A stretch of DNA of 64,000 bases from Pseudovirgaria hyperparasitica (taxonomy: Eukaryota): NCBI GenBank assembly GCA_010093815.1, contig ML996570.1; one strand, given 5' to 3'. Position 1 is the first letter of the stretch. Every line of letters begins with the position of its first letter. A program made the translations under genes and the position numbers. The notes under the pieces were generated by a model. It had not been told where the DNA came from. It was given only the letters and a program-made list of their open reading frames with translations, and made no database searches. Shown piece by piece: positions 20,417 to 64,000 of this stretch.

Positions 20417-20935
20417 ATGTATCTCGCAACACTCGCCACCGTTACCTTCAGTGCGATCGCACTCGCCCTTCCCTCCACCCCGGTGCTCACGCAACGAGCA
20501 TGCAAATCCTACGAAACAATCTCGGACCCAGGCTTCTACGCCGCGGCCTCCATCTCCTCCGCAGACTTCCCGGACGACCCAGACTACTTCGAGAATCAGA
20601 TCCTCGAGTGGCAGCCCAACCCCAGCGCCGGCAAGAAGTGTACACTCTTCGGCAACTTTGAGCGCGGTTTCGCCATCCGAGCTACAGGCGACATCAAATT
20701 GGACGTGTATAGGCGGAGTAGCAGTACCTCGAAGTCGTATATTGGCTCGTTGGCTGCGCTGCCTGTGGGTCCCGATGGCACGTTGGAGGACATCGTAAGC
20801 TCGCCAATTGCGAGCTTTCCTTGTGCGTCGGATATCGTGCTGGAGTTTCAGCTTGCGATTAGTGAGCCCGGGACATATGCGAACATTGCGTTTTCGAACG
20901 ATGCGGAGAATGGGTTTTTTATTTTGGCTTGTTAG
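20417..20935 (+). CDS. Small secreted protein, 172 aa, 4 Cys, But2-like C-terminal domain (tentative)
   Basis: Single-exon ORF with a hydrophobic signal peptide (MYLATLATVTFSAIALA). The pattern CTL.....GF.I...G...LDVY...IASFPC.....FQLA...I.F......GF....C recalls fungal But2-like secreted proteins. Confidence 0.75.
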   Translation: MYLATLATVTFSAIALALPSTPVLTQRACKSYETISDPGFYAAASISSADFPDDPDYFENQILEWQPNPSAGKKCTLFGNFERGFAIRATGDIKLDVYRRSSSTSKSYIGSLAALPVGPDGTLEDIVSSPIASFPCASDIVLEFQLAISEPGTYANIAFSNDAENGFFILAC

Positions 20936-21301
20936 CTAGGTTAGGGGCTTGGGTATGGGATTCAGGGTTTTGGGATGGTATAGACGTCTGTGTTCAGCAG
21001 TAGCGAATGATTATAGACTCGTGATGGTACGCGCCCTGATTGTTATGAAGCATTTGTAAGGATATAATATGTCAATACGGAGTAAATTATATCTAGATGG
21101 AATATAGAACAATAAGGTATAATCTTGACTAGGGCCTTCACATGCGCTGAGTAGTAGCTTCCGAGGAGGAGGATTGCTCCGGAAGCCGCCAGGCATCAAC
21201 TAAGGCACCCATCACTGACTAGAAGACAACAATGTTTCGTCACTCCCATTTAGTTCCAAGGATCCAGGATCTACGTTCGACAGTCCGCGACAGCATACGC
21301 A

Positions 21302-24300
21302 ATGCAAAGGTATGAGAACATATCTCAAGTGAGACCCTTACATGCCCGCTAATGTGTGCTCCCCAACGACAGAAGCGTCAGGCGCAATGCGCTTGAGAAG
21401 CTGGCGGCATTATCCACGAAACCGTCACCCCGAGGTTATGTCGACCTCACGAATCTCTGCAAACGATGCCCTTCCGCGGATACGAAAGTCAATGGAAATG
21501 CAAATGCAAATGGCAATCTGAACGGCTCTGTGGGAACGGCCAGGGTTCCGATGGTGAGCTTCCTGTATGGGCATTCATGCCTAACAATGAATGCTAATAT
21601 GACCATGGCAGAAAACCGCGGAGCTCGAAGTTATAATTGCCTTATGTAAAGCCGCACCGCTTGTGAAGTCTCTGGACTCAGCCGAGCAGCTGGCTCATCA
21701 GCTTGGGCCATACTTGTCAGAATCATCCTCCCAAACCATCCCAAGCTCGCCAGCTCTGCGCGACATTGAACCCTCACCGTGGGAGTCGCTCACCCTCCAC
21801 CTCACAAGCGCGCTACTTTCGCTGGGAATAAATCATGAAAGCCTCAGACCGCGGATGGAGGAATGTGTGCGCCTTTATGTTGGTCAATGGGCTCAGACTG
21901 CTAGTTCTCTCTCTGGCGGGCCACTCGATCGAGATGTTGCTTCCGAAGATGCCTCAAGTACGGAGCTGGAAACTATAATGACACTAAACCTATCTATCTT
22001 AGGGTTCCTTGACGCGGCGGCCAAGTATACAAGGTTTTGGTCTGCGCAGGAACGATTACAGCTTGTTTCTGACATCAGAAAAGCCCTTACAGAGAAATTC
22101 ATGGTTGCAACTGAAGCAGCGCAGTCAGTTGTGCGGACTTCTCGATCCCAACAAAAGCATCTGCGAGAATGGAAGAGGATTTCGAAGCACTATATCGCCA
22201 ATGGCCGCCCGCTCGGGTCTATGCTCCTGCATCAAGGCTTTATGAACTTGGTTGTTTCTTCGTCAGCATTGGTCGTCTGCCCAACAGATCCGGAATTCTC
22301 AGTCCCGGTGCTTGACTATCTGCAGCAGTATCCTCAAGGTCATCCGAGTGAGCTAGATCCTGCCGAGAATGCGCTTCTTGAAGACCTTGCCAGTATTGCC
22401 ATCGAAGAGATGGAGTTTGTGAACAGCGCTTCGGATTATCTACAGCAGGTCGGCTCTCCTTACCAACGGCAGATCGCATCCAAAGTAAAGGCAGACATTT
22501 TCAAGACTTTCGTTTGCTGCATGGTATACAATGAAGAAATTTCAGACCCAGATACGCTCCTTGCCTGGCTAGAGGCTACACTTTCTGATCCAGTTCAGCT
22601 TGTTGATCATTCTTTGGCAGCAACGGCACTGAAATGCTTACCCATCATCGCCCAGGCATCTCCAGCGACTGCGGCCAATCTAAGTCGAATTCTGCCTCGC
22701 TTGATTGTGCAAGGTGGGCTAGACCTGCCTACCGCATACGTTGCCGCCGATAGCCTAAGTAGAATTCTCAAAAGACTTCCCGAGGATGCAGTCATAACAA
22801 CTTTGTACAGCCTTGGGAATGTCCTCAGTGGAACGTCTTTGCCAGATCGCAATGGTGCTGTTTCGCCACCGCAGAGCAGTCAACTTAAAGTGACCAATAC
22901 AGGCGATAACACCGGCAGCACAATCTCTCTGTTAGCACAGGATACTGAGGAGCCATCGCTCGTTTATGCTATCGTCATTCAAACTGTCATTGGAATCGCC
23001 AAGAGCAGCAATGACGAGAAAATCATCGCTTTGGCTCTATCTATGCTTGTGCAAAAGATAGGCAAGGTGACACCTGCAGTAGATGCTCGAATTCTGAGCG
23101 AAAGCTCCGTGCTCGGAGCCTATACCGGCGCCAACGAACTCAAGAGCATCTTGAAGCTGTACTCGAAGATCGCCCATGACGCTCTCATCAACAATGATGA
23201 TGTTATTTTACACGCTGTAAGAACATGCACGATCTTCAGGAATACTTTACCACTAACAACAACTCCAGGTCATGAGTGCCCGCATTAAATTGGCTCGTGA
23301 GATCACAATCAAGTCTCCATTGTTCGAAATCCTCATTCGAAGCTTCCTTGATTCGATAATCAGTCAGGGTGACGCCCCTGGAAAGGATACAAAGCACCAT
23401 GGCAACACAGAATTCGCGGCTCAAGAGATCGCTCAGCTCCTGGAGCCGCTCGCGACCCTGGTTGCTGTCAACGCGGACGGACAGGATCACGAGCTCGATG
23501 AAGAGATTCTCACATTGCAGCGTGACGCATGGTTCAACGTGGCAGTCCATGGTTTCCATCCAACAAGCAATCTTGTCAAAAAATACGAGAAGGAACTTCG
23601 AACCTTGGCACAGTACAGTAAGCCACTCATTTCAGAAGAGCGAGCAGACCAACTCGAAAGTGACATCGAGTTGAATACAATTCTACGTCGGGGCAAGAGC
23701 TCAGAGCATACCGATGAGCAGAAGAAAAGCCTCATCAGGCTGCTACCGCAGCAAGAGAGTGCCATAAGATCGCTCAGTTACTCCGAGGTTGTTTTCGTCA
23801 ATGCCGTCTATCTGTTGGAAGATCTTCGTGCTAGCTGTGGTAATTGCACAGCCATACTAACTTACTTTTTGGACCCGAAGCTCCGAAAGGATCAAATTGG
23901 TGAATGTATGGTCGCCTTATCGAAGAGAGTGGTCAACACATACCTTTCACAGACGTTGAAGGGAGAATTCCACGCATTCTCAACGCCATACCTGGCCTAT
24001 CAACTTGCTCAGCTCTTTGCTGGGTGCTGCCATCGTATCGCCAAAGTTCGATCAGTGGCTACTGCATGTGCAGATATCATCATCAATGCTGTACCATCCA
24101 CGCTTTGTCAGAAAAGTGCTCTGTTCGCACTTTTAGAAATACTGTCCATGATGTGGAGTTCGTGTCTCGAGGCCGACACAGACGAATACGAGTGGAGGTC
24201 GACTTTCTCCTCACCCTATGGCGATGTGAAAGTCGAACTCGGTGATGATTACTCGACCCGGAATAGCACACTCGCTGAGTTCCGAAAGCACGCAAGGACT

Positions 24301-27300
24301 TGGGTTTTGAAAGTGATTGACATAGCGCCTCTCGATATCAAAGGACTGCTTCAGGTAAAAACACTCAAATCATGTATTATGGCTTCGACTGACCAAGTAG
24401 ACGTATCTTTCCGAATATGATGACGATGGTGCCTATGGACACGTCTCTCTAGGACGCTCATTCGCTTTAGAGATGGGTTCTGTTGTTCCCACTACTGATC
24501 AGCGACTGGGTAAGGACAAGCCTCCCTGGAATATTTTTATGCATTATCCTTATTACAGATTAGGTGCTATTGAATCTCACGACCTTGACATTAATCAAGC
24601 TTCGGACTTCGTTGCCCAGTACACTACGAGGCAGGAGTACCGGTTTGTAGATGGTTTGGTCGATCAGTACGAAGAAGAGTGGCTGAGGGAAGACAAGAAA
24701 GGTAAGCGCGCCAACCTGCATACGGGACCGAACCATGGCTGACCGATCCAAAGGCTTCCATCGTATCGATAAGCGTCCTACAGTGGATCGCAGTATCGAT
24801 GATGCTACAAAACTCCTCATTGATCTCGAGGTGCGGACTACTAAGAATCGGCATGTTCCCATTGCGGAGCTACGTGATATCCTGCGTAGAGCAGCAGCCC
24901 TACTGTGTCGAGTACAAACAGACCAATGTGCGATTGTACAGCATCTTGTTGGTATTCCTTTCGCTGTATTCACGAAGCAGTCGATCAAGCTTGGAATCTC
25001 TCTGTGGACAAGTGTCATCAAAGAGAATCCCAGAATGGAGTCACGTATGCTCGCGACCATTGCAGAAAACTGGGAAAGCACGATTCGAAAGAAACGTGGC
25101 ATCTTCAACGATAAGTTTACGTAGGTCGTACGATCACCACCGTCAAGATGTTTGCTAACTTGGGTGTAGACAACCAGACCCTTTCTTCGTGAAGCATGAC
25201 TTCGCGCCAACTGATAAGCCTGCCCTCTTGCGTCGGCAGCAACAGGCTACCAATCTTATTGCGCCACACTTCCGGCTTATTCAATTCCTTTCAAGCCACT
25301 TCGCTGCAAGTAGGCTATGCAGTCCGTATATCGAGAGAATATATACACGCTTGATACGCGTCAGTGTAGACGCTGTTGGACATGGACAGACATCAAGCCA
25401 TCCCTTAGCGCGAGAAGTGCATCTGCATATTGTCCTGCTTGCTCTAAGGATTCTGCAGTACAACACTAGTGTGCATGATAAGCAGAGATGGAGACTGAAG
25501 GATAAGATTCTGGGCGCTGCTCTGGCTTGGTTTGCAAGTCCTTTGAAGTTGGTATCATCATTTGAAGCATCTACCGTAGTTGCTAACACATCCACAGATG
25601 GTCCTACGGCGGTAATCGCTTGCAGATGAAAGCCGAAACCCACATACTGGGAGATATCCAAGCAGAGCTGAAGAAGAGTCCTGCAGATGTAGGCTTCAAA
25701 GTCACGACCTCCACTAGATCATTGGAAGATAAACAGAGCCTCCTACTTCAGCTACTCTCGGCCGAGCAGACAAGACTAATGGTGTGGCTGTTTCCGCTGA
25801 ATTACAAGGAAAGACATCATTTCACGGACGGTAATCACCACAAGTTACCTATAGAGGTTTGTTGAGGTCGCTTGCCTATGAGATTTCGAGGTTGCTGACG
25901 ACATCAGGGTGATCTTTCGAAAATGGTGAAGGTTGCGTGGGCAGAAAATCCGGCGCTTGCCGTTCACCTTGCATCGCGATTCCAAGTTCCAGGTATACAT
26001 CAACAAGTCAGGTGGCAGATTCTCAATTTCCCAGAGAAAGTACTCGAGGAGCCCGAAGCACTTGAAATACTGCTAGGCTCCTCACTGCCTAACGACGTGA
26101 TTTTCCAATTGAAGGTAAGATCTATAGTAATCGTATACCATCTGTGCTTATGGTTGACTTTCATAGTACCTGTTGTATTGGAAGCCCATAAATCCAATAA
26201 CAGCAGTCACATACTTCATGCCGGCTTACGGCAACCATGCCTTTATAATTCAGTATGCCATGAGGACGCTGGAAAGCCATCCGGTCGACGTCACATTCTT
26301 CTATGTGCCACAAATTGTGCAAACGCTTCGATACGATGCACTAGGCTATGTCGAAAGATACATTGTCGAAGCTGGTCAATTCTCTCAGCTCTTCGCGCAT
26401 CAGATCATCTGGAACATGAAGGCCAACTCGTTCAAAGACGAAGATTCTGAGATCCCAGACCCTGTCAAACCCACTTTAGACAAAGTCATGGATCGACTCG
26501 TGTCCAGCTTCACCAAAGAGGATCGAGGATTTTACGAGCGCGAGTTCGCCTTCTTCAGCGAGGTCACGAGCATCTCCGGCAAGCTTCGACCGTATATCAA
26601 GAGGTCCAAGCCTGAGAAGAAAGAAAAAATCGAAGAAGAGCTCCGCAAAATTCAAGTCGATGTCGGCGTGTATCTGCCGTGCAACCCAGAGGGTGTTGTG
26701 ATTGGTATTGATCGAAAGTCTGGTAAGCCTCTGCAGTCTCACGCCAAGGCACCTTACATGGCTACATTTCGTATGCGCAAGGATATCGTCAAAGATAACG
26801 ATGACGATGATGTGACGGGCCAAGACTCGGGAAGCCAATCTGTGGAAATGTGGAAGTCAGCCATCTTCAAGGTTGGAGACGATTGCCGACAGGATCTGCT
26901 CGCGTTGCAAATGATCTCCGCATTCAGGAGTATTTTTAACAGTGTTGGTCTCGATGCATGGGTATATCCATATCGTGTCACGGCCACAGCACCAGGCTGC
27001 GGTGTCATTGATGTGCTTCCCAATTCCATCTCTCGTGACATGCTTGGTCGCGAAGCTGTCAACGGATTGCATGACTACTTTTTGGCCAAGTATGGAGGCG
27101 AAGAGTCACCGCGCTACCAAGAAGCGCGGAACAACTTTGTCAAGAGCCACGCCGCCTACAGTGTCATTTCGTATCTGCTGCAGTTCAAGGATCGGCACAA
27201 CGGTAACTTAATGATCATGGACGCAGGCCAAATCGCACACATCGACTTCGGGTTCTGCTTCGATATTGCACCGGGTGGTATCAAGTTTGAACGAGCTCCG

Positions 27301-27633
27301 TTCAAGCTGACGACGGAAATGATTGCAGTCCTGGGCGGTAACAATCCCCCGAACCAATCGTACAGATGGTTCGAAGAGCTTTGTATCAAAGCGTTCCTTG
27401 CGTGTCGTCCGCACGCCGAACATCTGATCCATCTCGTCATCTGTATGCTGGACAGCGACCTCCCCTGCTTTAAGCCCGAAACTATTAAGCATCTTCGGGA
27501 GAGGTTTGTGCTGGAGAAGAGTGAGATGGAGGCCGCAGGGTTCATGAGGGACCTGATTCGAAAGAGTGCCGGAAGTTACACAACGAAGCAGTACGACCAC
27601 TTCCAGCTTCTAACGAACGGCATCCCGTACTAG
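21302..27633 (+). CDS. STT4: Phosphatidylinositol 4-kinase Stt4 (PI4KIII-alpha); about 11 exons
   Basis: Spliced N-terminus MQR|SVRRNALEKLAALS. FFYVPQIVQTLRYD, PLQSHAKAP, FKVGDDCRQDLLALQ, QFKDRHNGN, HIDFGF, FERAPFKLT and the terminal YDHFQLLTNGIPY. Successive ORFs are joined by canonical introns. Confidence 0.96.
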
Positions 27634-28216: not shown

Positions 28217-30016
28217 ATGCTCGTGTCTCTCCTACTCGTCACACTGGCAAGCAGCGCCAGCTGCAGCGTCATTCTTAATACGCGTCAGTCAAACGCCAAA
28301 GTCATCGACCCTGGCGCCACACCCGACGGTGCTAGTGGACCGATCCCAGAGTCCTTTGTGGCTTACAGTATCGAATTCAGCTCGTTTCCCGAATTTGCAG
28401 GCAACTTATCAAGCCCAAACACTTTCTCAAACAACCTACTCGATAACCTGGCCCAGCTCCAAGGAACAAAACCTTACATCCGAGTTGGCGGTAACACACA
28501 GTAAGGTCCTCCGTCGCTTCTCCATTGTAATTTCATCCTTCGTCTCCTTGCTTCTACTTCTCCCTCCAAGAATATACCCGACACAGAGAACACACTCTCC
28601 CTCCGAGCATCAATCACACAACATAACAAGCAGAACCATCATCTGACACCCTCTTCGCGCTGCCCAGAGACTACGCCCTCTACAATGCATCCCTACCCAT
28701 CGCCCTCAACGGCACAGTCATCCCTTCGCGCTCCCCAGACTACCCTTACCTCATCGACATAGGGCCATCGTACTTCGAATCGTATCTCACCCTCCCCGGC
28801 GTCAAGTTCATCCACGGCTTCAACCTTGCCAAAAACTCGACTTCGGATCATGCGCGCTTGCTCGAGTCGGTACCGCTTGTCTGCAAGGCGCTCAGCCACG
28901 GCAATCTGCTGTACTGGCAGCTGGGCAACGAGCCGGATCTGTTCAAGACGGCATCGCAGGGCATCCTGAGGCCGCGGAGCTATGACGAGGCGGCGTATGT
29001 GGCCGAGTGGCAGAATCTGACGACCCAGATCATGGGCGTTGTTGCCGAGGCGTGTCCCGGGCTGAGTAATGAGCAGTGGGTTGCGCCGAGTTTTGGGGGT
29101 GTGGGTAACAGCTTGAGGCAGGTGCCGACGTGGGCTGCTGGACTGAACAGCCAGGGGAAGGTGGTGTTGATTGATTCGCATAAGTGTGTTTTGTTTCATT
29201 CCATATGTGCATTGAATGTGACTGATATGTACAAGCTATATCGGCGGCGCAACTCAGCCCGGTATCTCCCTCCGCGGCACACTCATGAATCACACCCGTA
29301 CGCGCCTCTCCGTCGATGCTCAAGTCGCCGTCAAAAATTCGCTCGCGCAATACTCTCTTCCCTTCATCCTTGGCGAGACAAACTCGCTCTACAACCAAGG
29401 CGCACCCGGTCTGTCCAACTCGTTCGGTGCCGCTTTGTGGAATCTCGACTTCGCACTGTACTGTGCATCACAGGACATCAAACGCGTCCACATGCACCAA
29501 GGCACGAATTACCGTTACCAGTCGTGGCAACCCGTCACCACAGCATTAGGCACAAAGGGAACCAAAGCGCCGTACTATGGAAATGTGGCGACGGCGGCGG
29601 CGCTGGGAGATTTGAGGGGCGGGGATGTGAGAGTGAAGCATATCGCATTGGCTGCCGAGACGGATGCAGGCTATGCGGTGTATGCGAAGGGCGTGTTGAG
29701 GAGCGTGGTCATAGTCAATATGGTACCGTACAATGCGTCGAGTACTGTGACTAGGGGTAGTGAGACGTATAGTGTGAAGCTGCCGGTCGGGTGTACGAGC
29801 GACGCTGTTGTGCAGAGGTTGCTTGCTCCTGGAAGCGATGTGATTGACGGAGCGACGTTCAACGGGGTCAGTTATGATCTAGCGCTGGATGATGGGAAGC
29901 CGGTTGTTGTGGAGGGGATGAAGAGAGACGAAGGAGTGACGGTGGAGTACGATGGAGAGCTTGCGGTCGATGTGCCGTGGTCGAGCGCGGCGGTCGTCCA
30001 GCCTAGCTGTGTTTAG
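28217..30016 (+). CDS. Secreted glycoside hydrolase family 79 (beta-glucuronidase-like); 3 exons
   Basis: Signal peptide, YSIEFSSFPEFAGN, IRVGGNTQ|DYA, acid/base GNEPD, nucleophile ILGETNS, FGAALWNLDF, HMHQGTNYRYQSWQP and APYYG. Introns at ~28501-28667 and ~29184-29235. Confidence 0.9.
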
Positions 30017-30321: not shown

Positions 30322-31296
30322 TCAGCCAGCTTCATCTTCGCCATGCAGACCCTTGACTACCACAGTAACATCCGCCATGTCGCCAGCCCACAGCAACACC
30401 TCACCCTTCTTTGCCTTCCTCCATTCCGTATGTGGCACGACGCCCACACCCAGTCGTACAAACGTCTCCATCAGCGCCCTCTGTCCACTGCCAATCTCCT
30501 CGTCCCGGATACAAATGCCTACATCCGCAGCGAGCAGACACTCGAGATCAGTAGTGCTATCCCCGACATACACGACAGGGGCCTTGTCTTTCGAGGAGAC
30601 ACCAAAGTAGTGCAGCTTATCTGCAGATGTGTGCACGCCTCGGCCACCGTTTGGTCCCTTAATTACGCCCGTCGAAGTGCCTAACGGAAGACCCTCGAGC
30701 TCGTTCGCAATTATCACAGGGAGCAACTTATCATGATCTCCATAAATTGGTCCCGCAGGCACAGCTGCAGTAGCATCCCTGAGTTCTGAAGGAATTATGC
30801 TCTGGAGAGCGTGCTGTATTGCGACATTGATGAATGTCGCGCTCCAATTTACACTGAGAATACGCACGTCAACTCTGTGCTTCGCAGCGTATGTTAGTAG
30901 TGAGGACCAGCCAACCCGCATCTCGACATCCGCGCTGACATGATGAAGGTCTTGACTTCGGGTACCTTTCAGTGCCTTGGTATCGGCTACGCGTGCGATG
31001 CTACGTGCTTCGACGGATGCAAGACTTGCGAGAAATGCCCTTTCGGCGGCGATGGTGGTACGGGTGGGTGCTGCCGGCATATATCTGTCGATGTGGCTCT
31101 GGAGATCCTGGACGTATGCTTCGACTATGTTTGTCCATTGCTGGGTGAGTTTGCGGGATTCAGTGGGTCGGGCGTGTTTGGCGGCTTGGTGGAGGAGATG
31201 CAGAGTGTCTCTTTTTGTTAGTGTGCCGTCGAAGTCGAGGGTGAGCTGCATTACGGGCAACGCCGAGTTAGGGGCGCGACGGATGAGGGAGTTCAT
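30322..31296 (-). CDS. HAD-superfamily phosphatase (Cto1/TH2-HAD-like); the start may be 31251
   Basis: Motif I LDFDGTLT, motif II ILSVNWS, motif III DK and motif IV YVGDSTTDLECLLAADVGI. Intronless. Confidence 0.85.
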   Translation of the reverse strand: MNSLIRRAPNSALPVMQLTLDFDGTLTKRDTLHLLHQAAKHARPTESRKLTQQWTNIVEAYVQDLQSHIDRYMPAAPTRTTIAAERAFLASLASVEARSIARVADTKALKGTRSQDLHHVSADVEMRVGWSSLLTYAAKHRVDVRILSVNWSATFINVAIQHALQSIIPSELRDATAAVPAGPIYGDHDKLLPVIIANELEGLPLGTSTGVIKGPNGGRGVHTSADKLHYFGVSSKDKAPVVYVGDSTTDLECLLAADVGICIRDEEIGSGQRALMETFVRLGVGVVPHTEWRKAKKGEVLLWAGDMADVTVVVKGLHGEDEAG

Positions 31297-35538: not shown

Positions 35539-35788
35539 GTTATGGGGCCAGCCAGCGAACTTGGATGACTTTGAAAGTTCAAGAGGAGATGGATGACCAT
35601 ATTAGGTAGATAGAGATGGAGTACAGCACTAGCGCACCAAAGTCAGCCTTCCCCGATCCGGCCTTAGCTCCGGGGATGTCAACCAACATCGCACTCCCGA
35701 AACCTACAAAACAGCAACACTCACCTCAACCCCTTCACGACTCCGGTCGACACCTCGATCCCCATGTCTCGCAGACACACATGGCCGG

Positions 35789-37354: not shown

Positions 37355-37365
37355 ATTGTTGATGG

Positions 37366-39741: not shown

Positions 39742-39777
<36 letters not shown>

Positions 39778-48455: not shown

Positions 48456-48490
<35 letters not shown>

Positions 48491-49175: not shown

Positions 49176-49271
49176 GGGGGTGGTGTAGTAGCGGAGTGTT
49201 TTGCACATGTAGAATGAATGGAATGGAATGGAATGATCCCGTGACGAGAGTATGGAGTATGGGGAACCTAC

Positions 49272-51424: not shown

Positions 51425-51679
51425 CATACCAGCTACCACTAAACCCCCCCCCGAGAGCGCCTCAGCTAATATTATTATTACTGACTGTTACTGCTAACTG
51501 CAATCCTGGAACTCGCATACTCTGGTGCTGCGATCCGTACTGAGCTTCATCTTTTGCAACCGCGTTTTCATCATCCAGCCATCAACACTCCACCCACGCT
51601 CTATAAATCTGCTCTCGCTCATCGCTCACTTCGCCGTCTGACCGAATGACGGATGTGTTCAGAGTGGTGAGCTTCTCAT

Positions 51680-54600: not shown

Positions 54601-56032
54601 CTCAGCGCATCAACAGCAATACTCTCCAGCTGCAACAGGCGCAACTACAACAACAAGGCCAACCTGCACCTACTTTGACGCCACGACGGCGCATCCAACC
54701 TTTCAGAGTTGAGCGAAGAAAGGAGAACAGGCACATTTCAATGGTCGATGCGATGAGGAAGCTTGCACGAAAACGCGAATCTATAGCACACAAAGCAGCC
54801 GAGGCTGCCAAAGCCGCTGCGATGAGAAAGGCACACGAGCCTCAGCCACCCAAGACAACTGTCCACACCCCGGCGGAATTCAGTCGGTTGAAGCATGAAC
54901 GCGAAATACAGGCAGAGAAGCGAGAGCAAATGAGGCTAGCCCAGCAGCAAGCGATGATGATGCAACGTGTAAGTTTCCTTACTGTTTCGTACTTGGGCCG
55001 AACTTCACTGACTTCTCCCAGCAACAGGCTAACCTCAACGCCGCTCGCGCAGCTCAAGGCAACGCAAACGCTCAAATGCGGGTGGCCGCCACCCTGGCCA
55101 ATGCAAATGGGGCGTCCAACACTAACGCTGGCCCCACTTCGCAAATCGCTAACGCCGCTTCAATGCAAAATCGTCCCCAGGGAGGTCAACAAGCTGTCAT
55201 GCAGGGTAATATGGCCAATGGATCGAACACGGCCGGTATGAATATGAGCTTGAACGGCATGCCCCAGGCTCAAATGCAAATGCCGTCGCACCAAAGAATG
55301 CCCAATCAGGAGCACCTTCGTCAACACATGCCACATCGTCAATTCAGCACCACTCAGCAGCAACAGTACCAGATGCAACAGCAACAGGCACAGGCGCAGG
55401 CGCAGCAACAGCAGCTTAACAATCCCAACAATCTTGCGAGTGCGCATCGCGCCGGAACGAACATGGCTCTTCAGAACACACCAAACATGGTGGCCAACAT
55501 CGCTACCATGACATCTAAACAGGGTAACGTCAATGGGGCCGCAAGCGCCAATGGCAATGCTTCTATGGCCGGTATTGCGAGAATGTCCGGGTCTCCACAG
55601 ATGGCTCCACAGGTCAACGGAGGCCGTCCTCTGTCAAGTGGAAATGTACCAGTGATTCAGCAGGTGACGAATCGCCTTCGCCAGGCTCATCCGGACTGGA
55701 CAGCGGAGCAAATACATTCGAAGGCAAACGAGGAGCTTACATCTCGCCTTCGACAACAGCAACAATTCCAACGACAACAGGCCGTGCATGCTGCCGCGGG
55801 CAACAATGCGTATCAAAGCCCTGGAACGATGAGCAACGGAACGATGATGGGAAGCGCCTCACCGTCGAATGCCCAGCAGTTTAATCAACAGGCCTACATC
55901 CAGAACATGATTCGGAACAACGCGAACGGCCAGTCACAGACTCAAGGGAGCAGCCCGAGCATGGGTGCTGTCAATCCTGTGAGCCGTAGCGCGACACCGC
56001 AGAACCCTCAACAGCAGCAACAACAACAACAA

Positions 56033-56068
<36 letters not shown>

Positions 56069-56116
56069 ATACAGCAGAGCCCTGGAATGCAGCACGCTCA
56101 GATGGCTCGCCAGTAG
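51680..56116 (+). CDS. EAF1: NuA4 scaffold Eaf1/Vid21 (HSA + SANT/Myb); 4 exons, start approximate
   Basis: KILKRVYQLQNANKWSLRQ, HSA domain (HDDFLLAQMMWMRTDFREERKWK), SANT domain (WHWDEDQKLRSLVKEYQFNWSLVS...RRTPWECFERW), MRKLARKRE, HTPAEFSRLKHERE and a Q/N-rich tail. Introns at 51736-51854, 52023-52111 and ~54969-55027. Confidence 0.92.
56009..56068 (+). repeat. CAA/CAG poly-Gln tract in EAF1
   Basis: About 20 consecutive Gln codons. Confidence 0.9.
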
Positions 56117-56369
56117 AGGCGCATTTTGTACATATATCGACACGGTTGGTTTCATTTGCGGTCACACACACAAACACACACACATGATTGTTCTGTTCGG
56201 CATAAGACAGTTCTGGGATTAGCGAGATTCTTATTATGCTCTCGGGAGCAGCTGTAGTATGAGCACGGTACGGCGTCTGGAGAGGTTATTTTTTTTTAAA
56301 GTTGGTATTGATTCGTAGAGGCACAGAGCCTGTACAGGTTGTGAAGCGACGACCTGGCCTTGGTCGTCG

Positions 56370-56405
<36 letters not shown>
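56370..56405. repeat. (TTG)12 microsatellite
   Basis: Direct reading; lies between the convergent EAF1 and ADE8 genes. Confidence 0.9.
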
Positions 56406-56406
<1 letters not shown>

Positions 56407-56632
56407 CGTCGTCGGCGTCGGCGTCATCGACATGGGAAAGACGATATTTGAGGGAGCCCCGTGTTAGGATAGAGCGCAGCATTGTTGAATGCAAGATTAC
56501 GAGGAAGAAGCCTTTGAAGCAATATTCTAGATCTTCCTCCATCTACACAACTGCCTTTGGTTCTTCTCTGTGCTCCCCTCTCATGTGACAAATCTACCAT
56601 CTATCTCTCCTTATCTCCGCACTGCACCCCAA

Positions 56633-57457
56633 TCACACCTCCTCCCTCTCCCTCTCCCCCTTCCCTTCTCCTTCCCCCCTCCCCCTCCGCGCCCAAAACT
56701 CCCTCACCGCAACCGCCGTCCCCTCAACAATAACCCCCCACTCAACCGCATGCACCCTCTCCTCCACCCTCTCCAAGCCCCCCTCCCCCCGCTCATCCCC
56801 ATCCCCCTCCACAAACCCAACCTCCCTAACCACCAACGGCAGCCCCATATCCACCTCCCGCACAACCCGATGCACCATCACCCCCGTCCTGTCCACTTTC
56901 CCCGCCCGCCAATCCGCATACGCCCGCGCAATCGCGTTCGCGCCGTTATACGCGCCTGGCAGCGCAGGGTGCAGGTTTATGACGTCTATGCCGGCGGCGG
57001 CGATGGGGTCGAGGAAGGAGGGGGTGAGGACGTGCATCCAGCCTGCGCAGATTATGAGGTGGGGTTTTGTTGCTGGTGGGGTGGGGGGGTGCAGGAGGAG
57101 GTGGGCGAGGTCGGCGTCGTAGGCTGCGCGGGCGGAGGCTTTTGCGGCTTCGATTTGGGTTGTTTTTTCGGGGTCTGTGGGTGTGGTGTCGTCGTTGGGT
57201 TTGGGAGTTGGGATGGCGGCGAGGTGTTTGCGGGTGTAGGGGACGAGGTTGTGGTATGTTGTTGGGATGCCGGCGGTTTGGGCGCGGACGAGGCCGTATG
57301 CGGCTTTGCGGTTGGAGACGACGTGGGTGATTGTGCAGTTTGAGAGGACGGAGGAGGGGGATGCGCAGGCGTCGATGAGGGCTTGGAGGTTTGTGCCGTT
57401 GCCGGAGATGAGGACTGTGAGGAGGGTTTTGGGGGTTGTTGGGGTGGAGGTGGACAT
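56633..57457 (-). CDS. ADE8: Phosphoribosylglycinamide formyltransferase
   Basis: VLISGNGTNLQALID, VVSNRKAAYGL, ICAGWMHVL, catalytic INLHPALPG, TGVMVHRV..EVDMG and EERVHAVEW. Confidence 0.95.
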   Translation of the reverse strand: MSTSTPTTPKTLLTVLISGNGTNLQALIDACASPSSVLSNCTITHVVSNRKAAYGLVRAQTAGIPTTYHNLVPYTRKHLAAIPTPKPNDDTTPTDPEKTTQIEAAKASARAAYDADLAHLLLHPPTPPATKPHLIICAGWMHVLTPSFLDPIAAAGIDVINLHPALPGAYNGANAIARAYADWRAGKVDRTGVMVHRVVREVDMGLPLVVREVGFVEGDGDERGEGGLERVEERVHAVEWGVIVEGTAVAVREFWARRGRGEGEGKGEREREEV

Positions 57458-57772
57458 TGGGATTGGATTTTTGCGAGGGGGATGTGCGGAGGATTGCAGA
57501 GTTGAGTGAGAGATTGATGTGTGTGTGAGAATCGATTGTGCCTTTTCTGGTTTTGTGTTTGTGAAAAGTGGTGGTAGTGGTCAGAGGTTTGGGTTTTTTT
57601 TCATGCGTCGCGAAAAGTCGCGATACTTGGGCAAGCTGCCCCACTGTGGGGTAAATTCACGCAGCTCGAGCTTTGAGTCTACGAGGTACTTGGGCAGACA
57701 GTGAGTATTCAGGTCGTGTCTATTAATTATGCGTACCGTCCTGTCTCTAAAATCTATATCACGCATGTACAT

Positions 57773-59168
57773 TCAATCGCTGTCGTACTTGTTGGTATCA
57801 TAATCGCCCAAAAGGATATCGTCTGGTGCAGGGCCGCGATTGTTTCGCACTATATCTCTGTTAGCCACTGCTCGTGCAACCCGTTCTCTGCTCACTTACC
57901 CCATTCCGTCTCAACTCTGAAGAATATCCACACCCATCGCCTGAAGACTTCCAAGGCTTCCATCAAGAATATGCCGCCTTCTAAGTCGTTAAAGTGATCC
58001 AGATGCGGACTGAGCTTGAAACTCCATGTACATCGCAGCATAAGGTCCATGATAATCACACTGTAATACAGCTCTTTCGCATAAAAGTATCGATGGCGTC
58101 GCAACCCGAATGGATGTTCCGGGTTGTCGCGCTCCTTTGAGAAAAGGGTGAGGTCCCAATCCTTGGCAACATCCCAGTAAAAGGAATAGAAAGAATTGAT
58201 AAACACGGCCAGGAGCCTAGGCAACGTCTTGTTAGTTGACAGCTCACCAAGATTGTCAAATGATCCTACCACAGCCGAAAAAGTCCTTTCTCGCTCATGT
58301 GAAAGGTTGCAGGGTCATAGCCTCTTTGCATGGCACTCAATATGATGACTGGAAACGCGGTGGAATATTTCAGCGCGTTGGCCAAATGCTGCCCTCCCCA
58401 CCCAGCGGCACCAATGCTACCTGATGGCTTATTCGCTCTTCTAACTCTCAAATACTCAATCAAACATTGTCGTAGTCGTATTAAACTCGGTATGCTGATA
58501 ATGAATGGGACGAGGAACGCGCCTCCGCAAGTTCGGTCTGGTCGGCTTGTACTGCTGCCCTTTCCACTGACAAACATGCAAAGCGCGACGAAAAGATCAC
58601 CCATAACTTTTGCGTAGCTCGTGAGCGCATCAGCCATCAGAATATCTCCAAATTTTCCATTATCTGCTTCCGCGATGCCACCTATGCTTATGCGTCGGAG
58701 GGTGAGGAGGAATCGCGACCGGCCAGATGGCGATACAGACGGAAGCGGAAGGGCAAACACAAGTATTACTACGATTAGGTATAGATTTGGAAGCAGCGAG
58801 TATTGCTCTACGAGATTGGCGTGGCCCCGCGTGAGGACCCAGAAAAGGAGGAGGGAGATGGCCAGCGGAATGCTGAGCAGGGTGGCGAGTCTATATGTTG
58901 AGACATGGTGTCGAGGCTGATGACTATGCGTTCGCGCGGGATATCGTATTAAAGATGGTACGTCCTGAAAGACAGCTTGAGTTAGCACTGTGTTCGCGAC
59001 GATGGCGGCTCACGGGAGCAAGCATACGATTTTGACGAGAGAGAGGTAGTGCAGATTGGCACCCCAGGCCCAGATGCCAAACACACTGATTATAGCGACG
59101 CGATATGGGAGAGGAAGCCACAAACTGAATGTGTCTAGGATAGGGTCGACAGCCGGATCGCCGTCCAT
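57773..59168 (-). CDS. ERD1: EXS-family membrane protein Erd1; 4 exons
   Basis: LPLPYRVA...WAWGANLHYL, FGDILMADALTSYAKV, IRLRQCL, HLANALKYSTAFP, NSFYSFYWDVAKDWDL, LRCTWSFKLS and EVFRRWVWIFFRVETEW|VRN. Confidence 0.9.
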
Positions 59169-59892
59169 ATTGATGATGGACGCAGCAGCCTTCTCCTTTC
59201 TACCAGTCTGGCCACACAGCAGGAGTCTTCGTGCTCGACATACAGCTGAGAATAGCTGATATTGTAGGTGGGATGCTTGATACCAGCCGCAACAGTGCGC
59301 AGCGGAACAATGACTCGCAAGAACCCAGAACGAAGAAATGTAAGCTTGAGATGAGAAGATGCCAGTGTATGTGGTGTATGTGCCAATGTGCCAAGCGATA
59401 CTTTTCTTTGGCGGCAACGTAACGCGCTTCCCCCTGGCCTGGGCGCTTTGGGGGTCCAACCGCGAGATTTTCCGGCGGTGAAACGCGCTACTCAGCCCTA
59501 TGACTGCGGCTCCATCGGGGCTGTCGATCCATGCTAACGTCCCTCTCGGTTCTAGTGCGAACGAGTGTCTGTGATGATGATGCCTTAATAATGGTGACGT
59601 TTACATTCACAATCGGCGCCTCTCGCGGGCTGTTTTGCCCCAGAATCCAAACGCGGATGCAAACTTTAGTTGTCTGTGCCTGCCTTGGGGAACATGACGA
59701 CATTTTCGGAGATGATACCGACATCTTTCGTCCTGAGTGAAACTGCTGTAAACTCCCATCCCATCTCGTTTCTTCTCTCCTCCAATACCCAATCCGGATT
59801 GCAAGATACAAACTGATATTTGCATTGCTTCCCTCAGCACAGCCTTTCCCTCTCTGTTTCCTCTCAATCAATTAATCTCCTTTCTCCCAGCC

Positions 59893-60436
59893 ATGTCTCG
59901 AGCACTTTTGCGTCCACGTAACATCGCCATCGCTGTCGGTGCATCACTCGGTGCCTACTATATCACCTCCAATTACAATCCTGCTCGCACAGCCGGTGTA
60001 AAGCGAATCGAAGACGCTTATACCAAAGGAGGAGGCACCCCAACGCATCTACCTGCAGTTGCTACTAAGCTTGGAGACAAGGATCACATCACACCACCTC
60101 ACGAAACCCAGGGTGGAGGCGGAGGTGCGTGAAACTGCATTTGGTCATACTTGAGCTCTGTTGACTTACCTCCGTGGAGGCTCAGGCGTTTCATCCAAGA
60201 ACTTCAAAGAGAACCTGGCAGACCAAAAGACAGCTCCTGTATGTCATCCTCACAGACATGATACCCCAAAACACGAACAGTCGTCTCTGGGTGCTGTGAC
60301 TGACATGAATACACAGCAATCTGCGGCGTCGAAGAAGTTTCACGAAGCGATGTATGGTAAGGCAACCGTTCTCCTCTTCTCATTCAATGGAGTCCATGTC
60401 TAATGCACCACTCCAGGTCAGGATAAAGGCAAATGA
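59893..60436 (+). CDS. Small 4-exon protein of unknown function (~116 aa) with an N-terminal basic + hydrophobic segment
   Basis: Exons 59893-60124, 60180-60238, 60317-60356 and 60417-60436 splice in frame (351 nt) through GT-AG introns with branch sites. The product ends ...SKKFHEAMYGQDKGK*. Confidence 0.75.
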
Positions 60437-61390
60437 TCTGGTCAATTGGTAGAGCAATCAAACGTGGTGTCCATCGTCTGTCTCGGAGTCTGAATGCATA
60501 AAGCGGCGTCGTTGATTTACAAACCAAAAGAGTTACACGTACACGCATAATACATAATAGAATTCGACTACTTACACCTTGAATACCAAAGAGCTCCGTG
60601 TATGAGCATGCGATCGTCAAAGCGGACCTACAACCTGTCATGTCTCTTGAGCTAAATCCTTCAAAGTCAGTTCTGTATGGCCGACCATTGCCTACTCGAC
60701 ATTCTACCAGGAAACGCGATGTTGCTTCATGTACCTCCGTAGCCTTTACTTCCTTCCCAGTCAGAGGTTCCATTCTAAGTCTCTCCATACTAGAAGAGCG
60801 TGTCGATGTTGTAATGGATCTTTACATCACGTAGATGATCTGACTGGAAGAGACGGGACTAGCCAGAGAACATGTCGCTTGTAAACATTTGATTACGATT
60901 CGCTGTTGACATCCAAGTAGAACATCCGATGAGTACAGGGCGAACTCCTGAAGAGCGTATGGATTGATACATTGTAGCCTACAACGAGATGTATTGACAA
61001 AGATGACACGCCAGAGAGTTTGGTAGAAGAAAAGGGTTAGTATTGACTCGGCCCGACCTCGCTTGAGGGCTCTTGGTCCCTCTTTAGGCCTTCAAAGGAG
61101 ATATCGAGCATCAAGTGTCTGTTGGTACAGGATGAAGCTGAGCACTAGAAATTGACTTAGTATCTGCAGCTCTAGGTCTAGCCCGTAGTCATACCATCAG
61201 TCTGCTACAAATTGTAGGGTGAAGACAAGTTTGATATTTGCCTGGATCGGTTGCCGTCGCGGTTGCCGCCGGCCGAGTGCTAGCTTTTACGGCTGCCAAG
61301 CCGTTTCCATACCTCGCCCGTTTAACGCTGCGCAATCTTCCCTCTTCTCCTGCACCAACGATCACCGTATCCTCTTCACTACGGCCCAAG

Positions 61391-62747
61391 ATGTTCTCAC
61401 GAAGCTTCGTTGGAGGCCAGCAGGTTAGTGCGACCTCAATTCCACCTCCATCATGACTATCAAGCCCCGCCGTAGCTAACCCACTTGCGTGGTTTAGGCC
61501 GTTAAAGCTTTGCGAGGATCAGCTGTCGCTCCACGATGTCTCGCTGGACCTTCCACAGCTACGAGATGTGAGTCGTTGCATTGGCAGACATTGCAGAATC
61601 TTACCGAACGCGAATTGACTGGATAATCAGCGCTGGCGACACTCTCATCAGACATCTTCAAGCCGACCAAGTTCGGCGGAAAGTACACCGTCACCCTCAT
61701 TCCCGGTATGCCTCCAAGCTCGCGGCCAATCTATAGAAACTAAGAAGTGTGTCAGGCGATGGTATCGGTGCCGAAGTGTCTGAATCGGTCAAGGAGATCT
61801 TCAAGGCCGACAATGTACCAATAGAGTGGGAACAGGTGGACGTCTCTGGTATGGAGACTGGTAACAAACACTCTGAAGAGCTCTTCAGGGAATCAATTGC
61901 TTCATTGAAGCGTAACAAGCTTGGCCTGAAGGGTATTCTCCACACACCAGTCGAACGATCCGGTCACCAGTCCTTCAATGTCGCGCTCCGCCAAGAGCTT
62001 GACATCTATGCCTCAATCGTCCTTATCAAGAACATTCCTGGTTACGAGACCCGCCACAAAGATGTCGATCTTTGCATTATTCGTGAGAATACTGAGGGTG
62101 AGTACTCGGGCTTGGAGCACCAGTCGGTCAACGGTGTTGTCGAGTCTCTCAAGATCATCACCCGGGCCAAGTCGGAGCGCATCGCCAAATTCGCCTTCGC
62201 TTTCTCGCTCGCCAACAACCGCAAGAAGGTCACTTGTATCCACAAGGCAAACATCATGAAGCTTGCCGACGGTCTGTTCAGAAACACTTTCAAGAAGGTT
62301 GCTGAGGATTACCCGACACTGGAAACCAACGACATGATTGTCGACAACGCTTCCATGCAGTGTGTGTCCAGGCCACAACAGTTCGATGTCATGGTCATGC
62401 CCAACCTTTACGGAGGTATTCTCTCGAACATTGGTGCTGGTCTGGTTGGTGGTGCAGGTGTTGTCCCCGGCTGCAACATGGGTCGCGATGTCGCCGTGTT
62501 CGAGCCTGGATGCCGCCACGTCGGTCTAGATATCAAGGGCAAGGACCAGGCCAACCCTACAGCTCTTATCCTCTCCGGCTCCATGCTACTGCGCCACATC
62601 GGGCTCGATGACCATGCCAACCGCATCTCCAAGGCTGTGTACGACGTGATTGGCGAGGGCAAGCACAGGACGCGTGACATGGGCGGCGAGGCCACCACCC
62701 ACCAATTTACTCGAGCTGTCCTTGACAAGATGGAGGCGTCCGCATAG
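61391..62747 (+). CDS. IDH1: Mitochondrial NAD-isocitrate dehydrogenase subunit 1; 4 exons
   Basis: Presequence MFSRSF..., KFGGKYTVTLIP|GDGIGAEV, SFNVALRQELDIYAS, IRENTEGEYSGLEH, IHKANIMKLADGLF, MIVDNASMQ, MPNLYGGILSN and FEPGCRHVGLDI. Confidence 0.96.
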
Positions 62748-62954
62748 ATTTATCAGCATTTTCAGATTAGATGGTCCCCTTTGTTTTAGGTTCACGACGG
62801 AAGGAAGCGATGATCGATGTGACTGATGTATTTCTAGGCCGTACATAGCGCCGTACATAGCGTGATGCATTTAGACCTTTGGATCTTTCCCAAACTCCAG
62901 ACGCCATGCTCATAATGCAATGTGACCTGATCCCATGATGCTGGAAAGCCCACC

Positions 62955-63908
62955 TCAGAAAGCAATATTCCTTTTCCGGCCGGTGTATTTCGAGTTCGGC
63001 TTCACTACCTTGCCCTTGGCCTCCATCTGCTCCTTTTTCCTCATGATCCACCCCTTGCTCCCCTTCTTCTCCACGACTCCCCGTTTCGAACGGTCTCTCC
63101 CTTGTGCTCTCCGCCGCGAATCATCCACATCCACACCTTCCATCCCACTAACCACACCCGTAATATCCCCACCATTCAAATCCCCGCCCCCAACCGTCAA
63201 CACCAGATACGTCTTCGCACCCTTCGTCCCCTCATCATCAATCAGCAGCCCAGCCCCAAACCCAGCCCTAATAGCCGCCTGACTAACCATACCCCTCTGC
63301 ACCTCATTCTTCGGATAAAACTGACACACCGCCCTGCCCCCACGCCGCAAACTCGCATACAACCCATCGAAAAACCGCTTCAACCGACCCCCCGCACTCT
63401 CCTCACTACTCTCCACATTACACAGCCACTGCAGCGCACTAATACTGATCGCGGCATCGAACGTGCCCGGCCGGAACGGCACGCCCTGCCCGGCGTCCGC
63501 GAGGAAGAGGTCGCCCTCGACGTCGCGCTCCAGCGCGACTGCTAGCATCGACGCCGAGATGTCGAGCCCGATCCAGGTGTGCGGCGGGGCTTCGGCGGAG
63601 AGGATGCTGCCGGATAGGCCGGAGCCGCAGCCGATGTCGAGGATGAGGGAGGGGTGGCGCAGGTCGAGGAGGTCGAGGGCGCGGTGCGTCATGCTGGCTT
63701 GGATGTGCTGGATGCGCGAGGAGGTGGTGTATTTGGCGGATTCGGTGTCGTTGTAGAAGAGGTCTGGGGGTCTGTTTGGGGGGGTTGGTTAGGAGGGTGT
63801 TTTGGAGGGAGTGTGATGGGAAGGTGTAGAGAAATGGTTGTGTGGGCTTCGGGGGTGTGCGGGGATTTGTGTGTGTGGAACTTACAGTATGTCCTCGGGG
63901 CGCGACAT
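62955..63908 (-). CDS. BUD23: 18S rRNA m7G methyltransferase Bud23; intron 63772-63885
   Basis: MSRPEDIL|PPDLFYNDTESAKYTTSSRIQHIQASMT, the SAM motif LDIGCGSGLSG, FRPGTFDAAISISALQWLC, CQFYP and the C-terminal SKYTGRKR. Confidence 0.96.
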
Positions 63909-64000
63909 GGTGGAAGTGTTGGGAGGTGTTGACTGCTAGGTGTGGGTATATGCGATTGAGTGTATTCTGGTTGTCGTGTCGTGTAGAGAGCGCGCAAGGT

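Follow-up and report, generated by a model that had tools for sequence, protein, structure and literature searches.

Step-like C/A-to-G/T strand skew bound to individual genes in a 64-kb stretch of the Pseudovirgaria hyperparasitica genome

The window analysed here is one stretch of 64,000 nt of contig ML996570.1 of Pseudovirgaria hyperparasitica, a filamentous ascomycete; a public protein identical to the BUD23 of the window carries the name of this species. The identities of its genes rest on Pfam matches, which point to ATG1, a UBX protein, ECM29, asparagine synthase, condensin Cnd2 and STT4 in the first 28 kb, to GH79, a short-chain dehydrogenase, a WD40 protein, a velvet protein, a ZNF598-type RING protein and MND1 in the middle, and further on to a cytochrome P450, a MAK11-like WD40 protein, EAF1, ADE8, an EXS protein, an isocitrate/isopropylmalate dehydrogenase (IDH) and BUD23. 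In half of the gene models tested, the base composition of the coding strand changes between the two ends of the gene, nearly always from C/A-rich at the 5' end to G/T-rich at the 3' end. The skew already known from fungal genes (C at the 5' end, G at the 3' end) is seen here in an extreme form, on/off and step-like.

The skewed segments were delimited with a three-state hidden Markov model (HMM), whose states, called on the + strand, are neutral, M (rich in A and C) and K (rich in G and T). Over the whole window the model returns 31 blocks that add up to 7,867 nt (3,476 nt of M and 4,391 nt of K), or 12.3% of the bases, and 30 of the 31 lie at 28.5-64 kb. In 20 first-order Markov simulations of the window it returned 0 nt of block in 19 cases and 91 nt in one. 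The cumulative keto skew has 25 extrema with a prominence of at least 100, compared to a mean of 3.3 and a maximum of 10 in 100 simulations, and 13 with a prominence of at least 150, compared to a mean of 0.7 and a maximum of 5. The skew pattern in the window is real and far above chance, and the recurrent C/A-to-G/T switches described in an earlier, sequence-only reading of this DNA are borne out.

All 13 switch points named in that reading were recovered at or near their places, most of them within ~0.15 kb; the estimates are 20,698; 28,841; 29,576; 30,779; 31,967; ~33.0 kb (by reading of the sequence alone); 35,279; 36,898; 46,409; 48,619; 49,612; 56,933 and 63,575. The switch of the HAD-like gene exists, but it lies at 30,779, ~0.2 kb to the left of the 31.0 kb given for it. 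The description of the switches as mid-gene was right in that they lie inside genes and imprecise as to the place, which varies from 0.35 to 0.79 of the gene length. They had also been called independent of gene orientation. They are indeed seen with genes on both strands, but a C/A-rich stretch followed by a G/T-rich stretch is its own reverse complement, so that a rule set relative to the gene looks alike for both gene strands and the observation is uninformative. The 43 kb that the reading covered contain 15 switches, 13 of them inside annotated genes, and 14 resets, of which 12 are outside coding regions and 2 are in introns (GH79 and the EXS gene). The genes that carry the skew, and their parts, are the following.

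20417..20935, + strand: small secreted-protein open reading frame (ORF); third-position keto index -0.44 (5' half) and +0.44 (3' half), switch at ~20,698.
28217..30016, + strand: GH79 gene with two C/A-to-G/T units; predicted introns 28503-28667 and 29184-29235.
M 28562-28753, then G/T-rich ~28990-29235, + strand: unit 1 of GH79, with a reset at intron 2 (maximum at 29,230).
C/A-rich 29236-29583, then K 29584-30065, + strand: unit 2 of GH79.
30322..31296, - strand: HAD-like ORF; coding 5' part C/A-rich (+ strand K 31045-31243), 3' part weakly G/T-rich.
31492..32313, + strand: short-chain dehydrogenase gene; K 32114-32302 at the 3' end, switch at ~31,967.
32749..33929, + strand: PXR1-like gene with two units in one exon; predicted intron 32773-32821.
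~33.0 kb and ~33.43 kb, + strand: units of the PXR1-like gene, from C/A to G/T at the first position, with a reset at the second, without an intron, to M 33509-33782.
34888..35538, - strand: RRN10-like ORF (a name given by the sequence-only reading; no Pfam match); its coding 5' C/A-rich part is + strand K 35281-35547.
35680..37366, + strand: WD40 (CSA-like) gene, coding sequence (CDS) 35789-37354; M 35680-36472 and 36609-36673, K 36912-37366.
36473-36911, + strand: unskewed GC-rich core of the WD40 gene.
45939..46666, - strand: MND1 gene; predicted intron 46587-46663; coding C/A-rich 5' part is + strand K 46410-46640, 3' part G/A-rich.
47500..49203, + strand: cytochrome P450 gene; exon 1 (47500-47819) unskewed, predicted intron 47820-47875.
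M 47826-48428, mixed core 48429-48892, K 48893-49203, + strand: blocks of the P450 gene, the last one running 28 nt beyond the stop codon.
49272..50904, - strand: MAK11-like WD40 gene; intron 49925-49982 (RNA-contig joint); coding G/T block is + strand M 49407-49570.
56530..57601, - strand: ADE8 (GAR formyltransferase), CDS 56633-57457.
62955..64000, - strand: BUD23 gene; exon 1 63886-63908, intron 63772-63885 (RNA-contig joint).
+ strand K 63576-64000 (coding C/A), CpG-rich core 63430-63575, + strand M 63111-63429 (coding G/T): blocks of BUD23, - strand.

The RNA contigs mentioned in this list are spliced and unstranded and come from two runs of one sample; they give intron joints, not transcript ends. 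They contain no variant letters, so that no polymorphisms were obtained from these two runs.

The swing in GC skew, taken in 200-nt windows, is -0.83 to +0.76 for ADE8, -0.66 to +0.63 for BUD23, -0.52 to +0.80 for P450 and -0.50 to +0.83 for the WD40 gene. The profiles are plateaus, not gradients, and the change from one to the next is often a step. ADE8 is a clear case: its coding strand is almost devoid of G and T from 57601 to 56957 and almost devoid of C and A from 56956 to ~56530, and the switch, on the codons for the conserved motif NLHPALP, is complete within ~20 nt; the third-position GC skew goes from -0.97 to +0.95, and that of position 2 from -0.63 to +0.61. In the P450, BUD23 and WD40 genes the blocks are separated by an unskewed core; the cores between blocks have a GC content of 0.60-0.68 and a CpG observed/expected ratio of 1.24-1.47. 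The last ~150 nt of the BUD23 CDS are just weakly skewed. Whether genes are aligned on the start, on the stop or at either side of the switch, third-position skew does not vary with distance in any of the four alignments, a result that favours neither the centre nor the ends of genes as the source.

All four genes that carry both types of HMM block have M before K in the coding direction. The K blocks, with lengths of 160-480 nt, are found close to the 3' end of the gene or right at it, and the length of the M blocks is more variable. In the skewed genes the strong depletion of C and A covers the last 200-480 nt. The third-position keto indices of the 5' and 3' halves of 22 gene models were compared by shuffling the order of the codons and by shuffling synonymous codons, the latter keeping the protein. 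The halves differ in 11 of the 22 models with the first shuffle (p<=0.0002), and the identical 11 genes are significant with the second (p = 0.0005). In 10 of the 11 the coding strand goes from C/A to G/T, five on the + strand and five on the - strand, in agreement with the earlier observation that codons tend to end in C in the 5' half and in G or T in the 3' half. The PXR1-like gene is the sole significant gene whose sign is reversed in this test, because it contains two units; its lysine codons shift from AAG to AAA at ~33.43 kb.

At 4-fold degenerate sites, blocks that are M on the coding strand have 429 C, 88 A, 47 G and 15 T (74, 15, 8 and 3%), and blocks that are K have 253 G, 73 T, 38 C and 17 A (66, 19, 10 and 4%), while the composition of these sites in neutral DNA is roughly uniform. 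The M and K compositions thus mirror each other. At 2-fold sites, A is preferred to G (76:39) and C to T (208:11) in M blocks, and T is preferred to C (108:24) and G to A (135:19) in K blocks. The excess of A over G in M and of T over C in K means that the skew overrides GC preference, and that the asymmetry opposes amino (A+C) to keto (G+T) bases, not merely C to G. The third-position T-A skew flips alongside the G-C skew, from -0.89 to +0.58 in ADE8 and from -0.68 to +0.68 in the WD40 gene.

The introns that lie in M zones are skewed as well: the GC skew of their coding strand is -0.81 in BUD23, -0.57 in P450 and -0.64 in MND1 (the latter two are predicted introns), compared to -0.31 to +0.44 in 11 introns of genes without a significant shift between halves. 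The skew also reaches ~100-150 nt past the start and stop codons, and then ends. It is -0.71 at positions -150 to -1 of ADE8, +1.00 at positions +1 to +100 of the WD40 gene and +0.76 at positions +1 to +30 of P450; the 100 nt that follow the stop codon of the WD40 gene (37355-37454) contain zero C, with fractions of 0.38 for A, 0.39 for G and 0.23 for T. The sequence-only reading had followed the skew through the BUD23 intron (63772-63885) and into the flanks, measured here at 49176-49205 and 57458-57607, and it had concluded that codon choice driven by tRNA is insufficient to explain it; both statements stand, since the skew persists at synonymous and intronic sites and exceeds the null. Because introns, flanks that resemble untranslated regions, silent sites and even amino acids are covered, the skew acts on DNA.

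These data leave next to no room for the view that the skew results from amino-acid composition or from codon preference in translation, already refuted as sole causes. Codon positions 1 and 2 shift too, as seen above for position 2 of ADE8, and ADE8 homologues encode a G-richer 3' part even when their silent sites are unskewed. However, the difference between halves survives the protein-preserving shuffles in the 11 genes, and 4-fold, 2-fold, intron and flank sites are all skewed, so codon or amino-acid choice was rejected.

Three other candidates were rejected. The decay of 5-methylcytosine does not agree with the CpG observed/expected ratio, which is 1.09-1.14 in the blocks and higher still in the cores. 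Conversion mediated by cDNA, starting from the 3' end, was considered since the genes with blocks are intron-poor; it was rejected as the sole cause because the introns within blocks share the composition of the block. The units are not exons either, since the PXR1-like gene resets within an exon and the M zone of BUD23 covers exon 1, the intron and exon 2. An all-against-all comparison of the 19 blocks of at least 150 nt gave just low-complexity matches of 22-50 nt, and no mutual repeats.

Other genes of the window have no skew at all. They occupy the following regions.

304..27633: block-free controls ATG1, ECM29, asparagine synthase, condensin Cnd2 and STT4.
7092-7246: the single HMM block of the first 28 kb, at the 5' end of the UBX/UBA gene.
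51539..62747: unskewed genes EAF1 (51.5-56.1 kb), EXS (57.8-59.9 kb) and IDH (~61.3-62.7 kb).

The skew is absent from ATG1, ECM29, STT4, Cnd2, EAF1, EXS and IDH, even from their last 75 codons. ATG1, ECM29, STT4 and EAF1 had been singled out as unskewed from the start, and none of them has a keto shift (p 0.07-0.95). IDH abuts BUD23, and EAF1 and EXS abut ADE8, yet all three are unskewed. The two ends of one gene co-vary in skew strength (rho 0.62, p 0.002, n=22, of which 8 models have one approximate end; rho 0.42, p 0.13, n=14 for the models with both ends defined), whereas no correlation is seen where the ends of two neighbouring genes abut (rho -0.04 for 21 pairs, rho -0.10 for 13 defined pairs). 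Co-variation within genes without co-variation between neighbours favours a determinant in the gene over one in the spacer. The switches belong to individual genes, not to sites of the chromosome, and the skew is autonomous to the transcription unit.

The sequence-only reading had put forward replication origins, each flip from negative to positive marking a bidirectional origin as in bacteria, and the sign of the flips (C/A to the left, G/T to the right) is the classical sign of an origin. This explanation is now very improbable. The 15 flips in 43 kb amount to about one per gene, whereas origins in yeast are spaced by tens of kb. An origin-type skew should persist over many genes, but here almost all gene borders bring a reset, located in the spacer or in an intron, and the skew ends within 100-150 nt of the ends of the genes and is absent from the neighbouring ones. 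The switch cores are GC-rich (0.60-0.68), and the flip of ADE8 is found at the same codons in unrelated fungi.

The same reading had mentioned recombination or repair hotspots. Breaks could occur in the nucleosome-free regions that flank genes, with damage to the resected 3' tails, or in the switch cores, in which case the skew would come from errors of fill-in synthesis or from unequal mismatch repair; in both versions strand-polar substitutions are added to GC-biased gene conversion. The blocks are indeed rich in GC at third positions (GC3 of 0.7-0.9, vs ~0.5 elsewhere), and the strength of the skew increases with GC3 (rho 0.46, 50-codon windows, n=202), which fits a recombination-linked cause. 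The resets sit in intergenic DNA or in introns, the sign is that expected from breaks at gene ends with tail damage, and the half-lengths of the blocks (0.2-0.8 kb) resemble the lengths of resection and conversion tracts in yeast. Work on bacterial GRINS (PMC8256042) ties the same G+T/C+A skews to gene conversion. Of two genes that flank a break, however, both should be marked, yet IDH next to BUD23, and EAF1 and EXS next to ADE8, are unmarked; likewise, skew strength is common to the two ends of one gene (rho 0.62) and not to abutting ends of neighbours (rho -0.04). The borders are steps, not gradients, the ADE8 switch lies on the same codons in fungi whose proteins are ~50% identical, and GC3 does not predict the skew across 80 ADE8 loci. 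Hotspots are therefore disfavoured and appear quite unlikely as the cause.

The sequence-only reading knew of no established explanation. A mechanism is still lacking, but the phenomenon has been described. In the closest known account, McLean and Tirosh (2011, BMC Genomics 12:638, PMC3315797) reported GC skews of opposite sign at the two ends of fungal genes, in a data set that includes filamentous ascomycetes, and they favoured a transcription-linked mutational cause, the mechanism of which they left open. As in their study, the coding strand is biased to C at the 5' end and to G at the 3' end (here in 10 of the 11 significant genes), and the bias is present at fourfold-degenerate sites, extends into promoters and untranslated regions and shifts the usage of amino acids. 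Their skews are ramps of genome averages, in a three-line model with gradual change at both gene ends and an intermediate middle. Here the skew is on or off in each gene, with plateaus, steps of ~20 nt, a third-position skew of up to +/-0.97, an unskewed core in three genes and nothing in 11 of the 22 models. Their A-T skew is flat, with A going with G (purine type), while at the silent sites of the window T rises together with G, and A together with C. Their GC skew falls with GC content, and here its strength rises with GC3. Finally, genes with two units and conserved switch positions, both seen here, do not feature in their paper.

Conservation was assessed for ADE8. One metagenome scan gave 80 loci, of which 66 have an uninterrupted frame and were used, and 14 have in-frame stops and were dropped. 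The third-position GC skew changes positively from 5' to 3' in 55 of the 66, with a median of +0.38; in 8 loci the change reaches 1.08-1.39, compared to 1.48 in the ADE8 of the window. The third-position T-A skew rises in 16 of the 18 strongly polar loci. HMM blocks occur in 28 of the 80 loci and cover 4.2% of the bases, vs 12.3% in the window, and an M block followed by a K block lies on ADE8 itself in L004/L006, L030, L043, L050, L056 and L059. Two pairs of close relatives, L056/L059 (91.5% DNA identity) and L004/L006 (98.9%), have the ADE8 blocks in both members. Across the 80 loci GC3 is without predictive value: a GC3 of 0.97 is found with a shift of 0.18, and a GC3 of 0.40 with a shift of 1.35.

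The position of the switch is conserved too. The step lies inside the invariant NLHPALP codons in the window and in L050, L056 and L059, and the K block starts there in L004 and L043. Of 24 aligned sequences with a strong step, 13 switch between -13 and +14 codons from the motif, 9 between -41 and -24 and 2 elsewhere, these two ranges having been picked after inspection of the data. In a quick maximum-likelihood tree (IQ-TREE), the two types of switch position are interleaved, with 6 changes each, at least 3 and at least 6 of which, respectively, are forced by well-supported branches. The fungi that share the switch codons have ADE8 proteins that are ~50% identical. Altogether, the skew reflects a DNA-level, gene-autonomous and strand-asymmetric substitution bias, with two mirror-image states and sharp borders; it is anchored to the transcription unit and widespread in fungi.

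The skew also recodes the protein. Compared to 59 homologues, the G/T-rich half of the ADE8 of the window has gained 10 and lost 1 of the residues that can be encoded with G and T (G, V, W, F, L, C), and the C/A-rich half has gained 14 and lost 7 of the residues written in A and C. Lineage-specific inserts in ADE8 have the composition of the block in which they lie. The closest outside match is 58% identical, and the ADE8 of the window has the longest terminal branch of the tree (1.0, compared to a median of 0.13).

These results bear on the idea that selection acts on the transcript or on transcription, for an unstructured C/A-rich 5' part, for a G-rich 3' part that aids termination, for the speed of the polymerase as set by the supply of cytidine triphosphate (CTP) or for pairing of the 5' part with the 3' part. 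The control of polymerase speed by CTP supply is the adaptive idea of McLean and Tirosh (PMC3315797), and pairing within the mRNA had been proposed in the sequence-only reading. The recurrence of the polarity in the ADE8 of many fungi, at conserved positions, speaks for selection. The folding of a transcript-like region of 1,072 nt of ADE8 was predicted and compared to mononucleotide shuffles, 20 within each part and 20 global. Alone, the C/A-rich part is predicted to be almost free of structure (-0.114 kcal/mol per nt). The whole region has a predicted energy of -414.6 kcal/mol, better than that of the global shuffles (-379.3 +/- 9.2 kcal/mol, z = -3.8), and 272 of the 324 predicted pairs join the two parts.

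Shuffling within the parts, however, gives -405.2 +/- 10.8 kcal/mol (z = -0.87). This suggests that pairing between the parts would be permitted by composition alone, and the predicted folds give no sign of a selected complementarity; the proposal of specific pairing was thus not upheld. Moreover, one of the most skewed sequences is an intron, which is removed by splicing, mirror-image states are not predicted by a function of the RNA, and half of the genes, including IDH, are without the pattern. The recoding of ADE8, a conserved enzyme, together with its long branch, also argues against selection, which seems an unlikely explanation.

The likeliest cause is probably a transcription-linked, strand-asymmetric bias in mutation or repair. 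In each zone one strand would be depleted of C and A, the amino bases, and enriched in G and T, with exposure of the non-template strand close to the 3' end and of the template strand in the more upstream part. Repeated single-strandedness would lead to deamination (C to T, A to G) and to the insertion of C opposite abasic sites, by which the damaged strand would gain G; the excess of G over T at 4-fold sites of K blocks (66% vs 19%) fits the bypass of abasic sites, without a conversion bias. The bias would reinforce itself, leading to two stable states with sharp borders, and this would account for the plateaus, the steps, the on/off behaviour and the conserved borders. In vertebrate mitochondrial heavy strands, as around bacterial origins, the strand that is single-stranded for longer has an excess of G+T. 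The coupling of keto and amino bases is common to these systems and to the fungal blocks, but there the asymmetry extends over a replichore or a genome and is weak to moderate, whereas here it is bound to genes over 0.2-0.8 kb and near saturation.

As for the way in which the strand becomes exposed, the density of G-quadruplex motifs is 2.7 per kb in K blocks (on the coding strand), 8.9 per kb in M blocks (on the template strand) and 0.05 per kb in neutral DNA, a 50- to 180-fold excess on the G-rich strand. Because of this excess we tentatively propose that the G-rich strand may be displaced in co-transcriptional RNA-DNA hybrids or in G-quadruplex structures, by sense RNA in the 3' zone and by antisense RNA in the 5' zone. 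It is the template strand that is G-rich in the 5' blocks, and such R-loops would therefore need an antisense transcript there.

Ginno et al., in 2012 and 2013, reportedly described promoters and terminators of mammalian genes that are GC-skewed and form R-loops. They share with the fungal blocks the asymmetry of G and C between strands at the ends of transcription units, with a G-rich non-template strand at the 3' end, but the 5' end of the coding strand is G-rich in mammals and C-rich here. In budding yeast, Wahba et al. (2016, PMC4911931) found no GC-skew signature at hybrid-prone regions. Budding yeast has little gene skew.

It is also conceivable, though doubtful, that a composition-dependent, strand-specific mutation process, such as the displacement of the G-rich strand in hybrids with sense and antisense transcripts, maintains two self-perpetuating states of strand composition, one C/A-rich and one G/T-rich on the coding strand. 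Their borders would behave like inherited domain walls, for which the protein would provide the seed through the skew of codon positions 1 and 2. In 33 weakly skewed ADE8 loci, the skew of positions 1 and 2 rises at ~-45 and ~+15 codons from the motif, which roughly matches the two preferred switch points, and along ADE8 the silent-site state of the window follows the skew that 79 homologous proteins imply for these positions (rho 0.62, p 0.018). Borders seeded by the protein would explain why ADE8 switches at the same codons, or ~35 codons upstream, across lineages. If this were true, the process would recode conserved enzymes and may be a eukaryotic counterpart of the skews of bacterial GRINS.

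Several observations weigh against a transcription-linked, self-reinforcing bias or against parts of it. The IDH gene and all the long genes are transcribed and yet have no skew, an on/off behaviour which is unexplained. The GH79 and PXR1-like genes hold two units each, with one reset inside an exon, so that a simple 5'-to-3' rule is incomplete. The exposure of the strands and the antisense transcripts are assumed, and the published fungal skew correlates weakly with expression (R ~0.07-0.1, PMC3315797). The rise of skew strength with GC3 also goes against it. In BUD23 the position 1+2 skew implied by the protein does not track the silent-site state (rho 0.34, p 0.17). The substitutions between L056 and L059, polarised with L046 and L048, number 21 in M and 5 in K, too few to give a direction; the rates per site in M blocks lean the expected way, with tiny numbers (T>C 4/70 vs C>T 5/168; G>A 3/74 vs A>G 2/121).

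A parallel in form comes from bacterial polyketide synthase genes, in which Nivina et al. (2021, PNAS, PMC8256042) described GRINS, whose mechanism is unknown. GRINS have intense, correlated GC and TA skews, and within 1 kb they change abruptly from G+T-coded to C+A-coded sequence or back; the skews extend to third codon positions, and the proteins are recoded to Gly/Val or to Pro/Thr/His/Gln. That work defines them as duplicated regions (>500 bp, >80% identity) and ties them to gene conversion between paralogous modules, while the fungal blocks have no mutual repeats, follow the polarity of the gene and lie in ordinary single-copy genes. In a search of literature that included few subscription journals, no paper was found to describe the keto-type form with its steps and its on/off behaviour.

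Since 2011 fungal genes have been known from print to be weakly skewed on average, without a mechanism, and in this window the same polarity is nearly all-or-none. The window offers clean contrasts between skewed and unskewed neighbours, steps of ~20 nt and introns inside blocks. If a transcription-linked, self-reinforcing bias is the cause, mutation pressure acting locally is able to outweigh codon preference and to change the sequence of conserved proteins, which would matter for gene finding, for tests of codon usage and selection and for the phylogenetics of such fungi. It could also link the gene skew of fungi with the unexplained G+T/C+A skews of bacterial polyketide synthase genes.

One further skewed region of the window contains a velvet-domain gene.

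38424..41173, - strand: velvet-domain gene region, a putative gene model; the + strand is G-rich over ~2.8 kb, and the coding strand C-rich.
38424-38506, 39478-39953, 40856-40957 and 41083-41173, called on the + strand: K blocks of the velvet region.

Within 38424-42900, ~2.8 kb with a G-rich + strand, comprising the velvet gene and the part upstream of it, are followed by ~1.7 kb in which that strand is C-rich. The flip between the two stretches, at ~41.2 kb, resembles a divergent promoter, the gene models being putative here.

In the P450 gene, (TCC)n and (GAA)n runs at 48052-48105 and 48442-48503 encode poly-Ser and poly-Glu; one is in the C/A-rich block and the other in the core, and the RNA contigs are interrupted at each of them. 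Between EAF1 and ADE8, at 56360-56421, the HMM calls a small K block on a (GTT)n microsatellite of the + strand.

A public protein identical to the ADE8 ORF (P0001) has 213 aa and covers 78% of the 274-codon ORF, and the deposited gene model seems to omit part of the latter.

RNA contigs of the MAK11-like gene extend to 49070-49112, within the K block of P450. Single contigs bridge neighbours at 49070-49275 (MAK11 and the 3' end of P450), 62050-63771 (IDH and BUD23), 46664-47819 (MND1 and P450) and 56843-57849 (EXS and ADE8), which indicates that the transcripts of neighbouring genes overlap or abut in this compact genome.

Two long antisense ORFs, one of 546 codons over the WD40 gene (35867-37507, - strand) and one of 257 codons over ADE8 (56570-57343, + strand), have no Pfam match. 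They seem to be a mere consequence of the skew, since stop codons are removed by such a composition, and long spurious ORFs of this kind could mislead gene finders.

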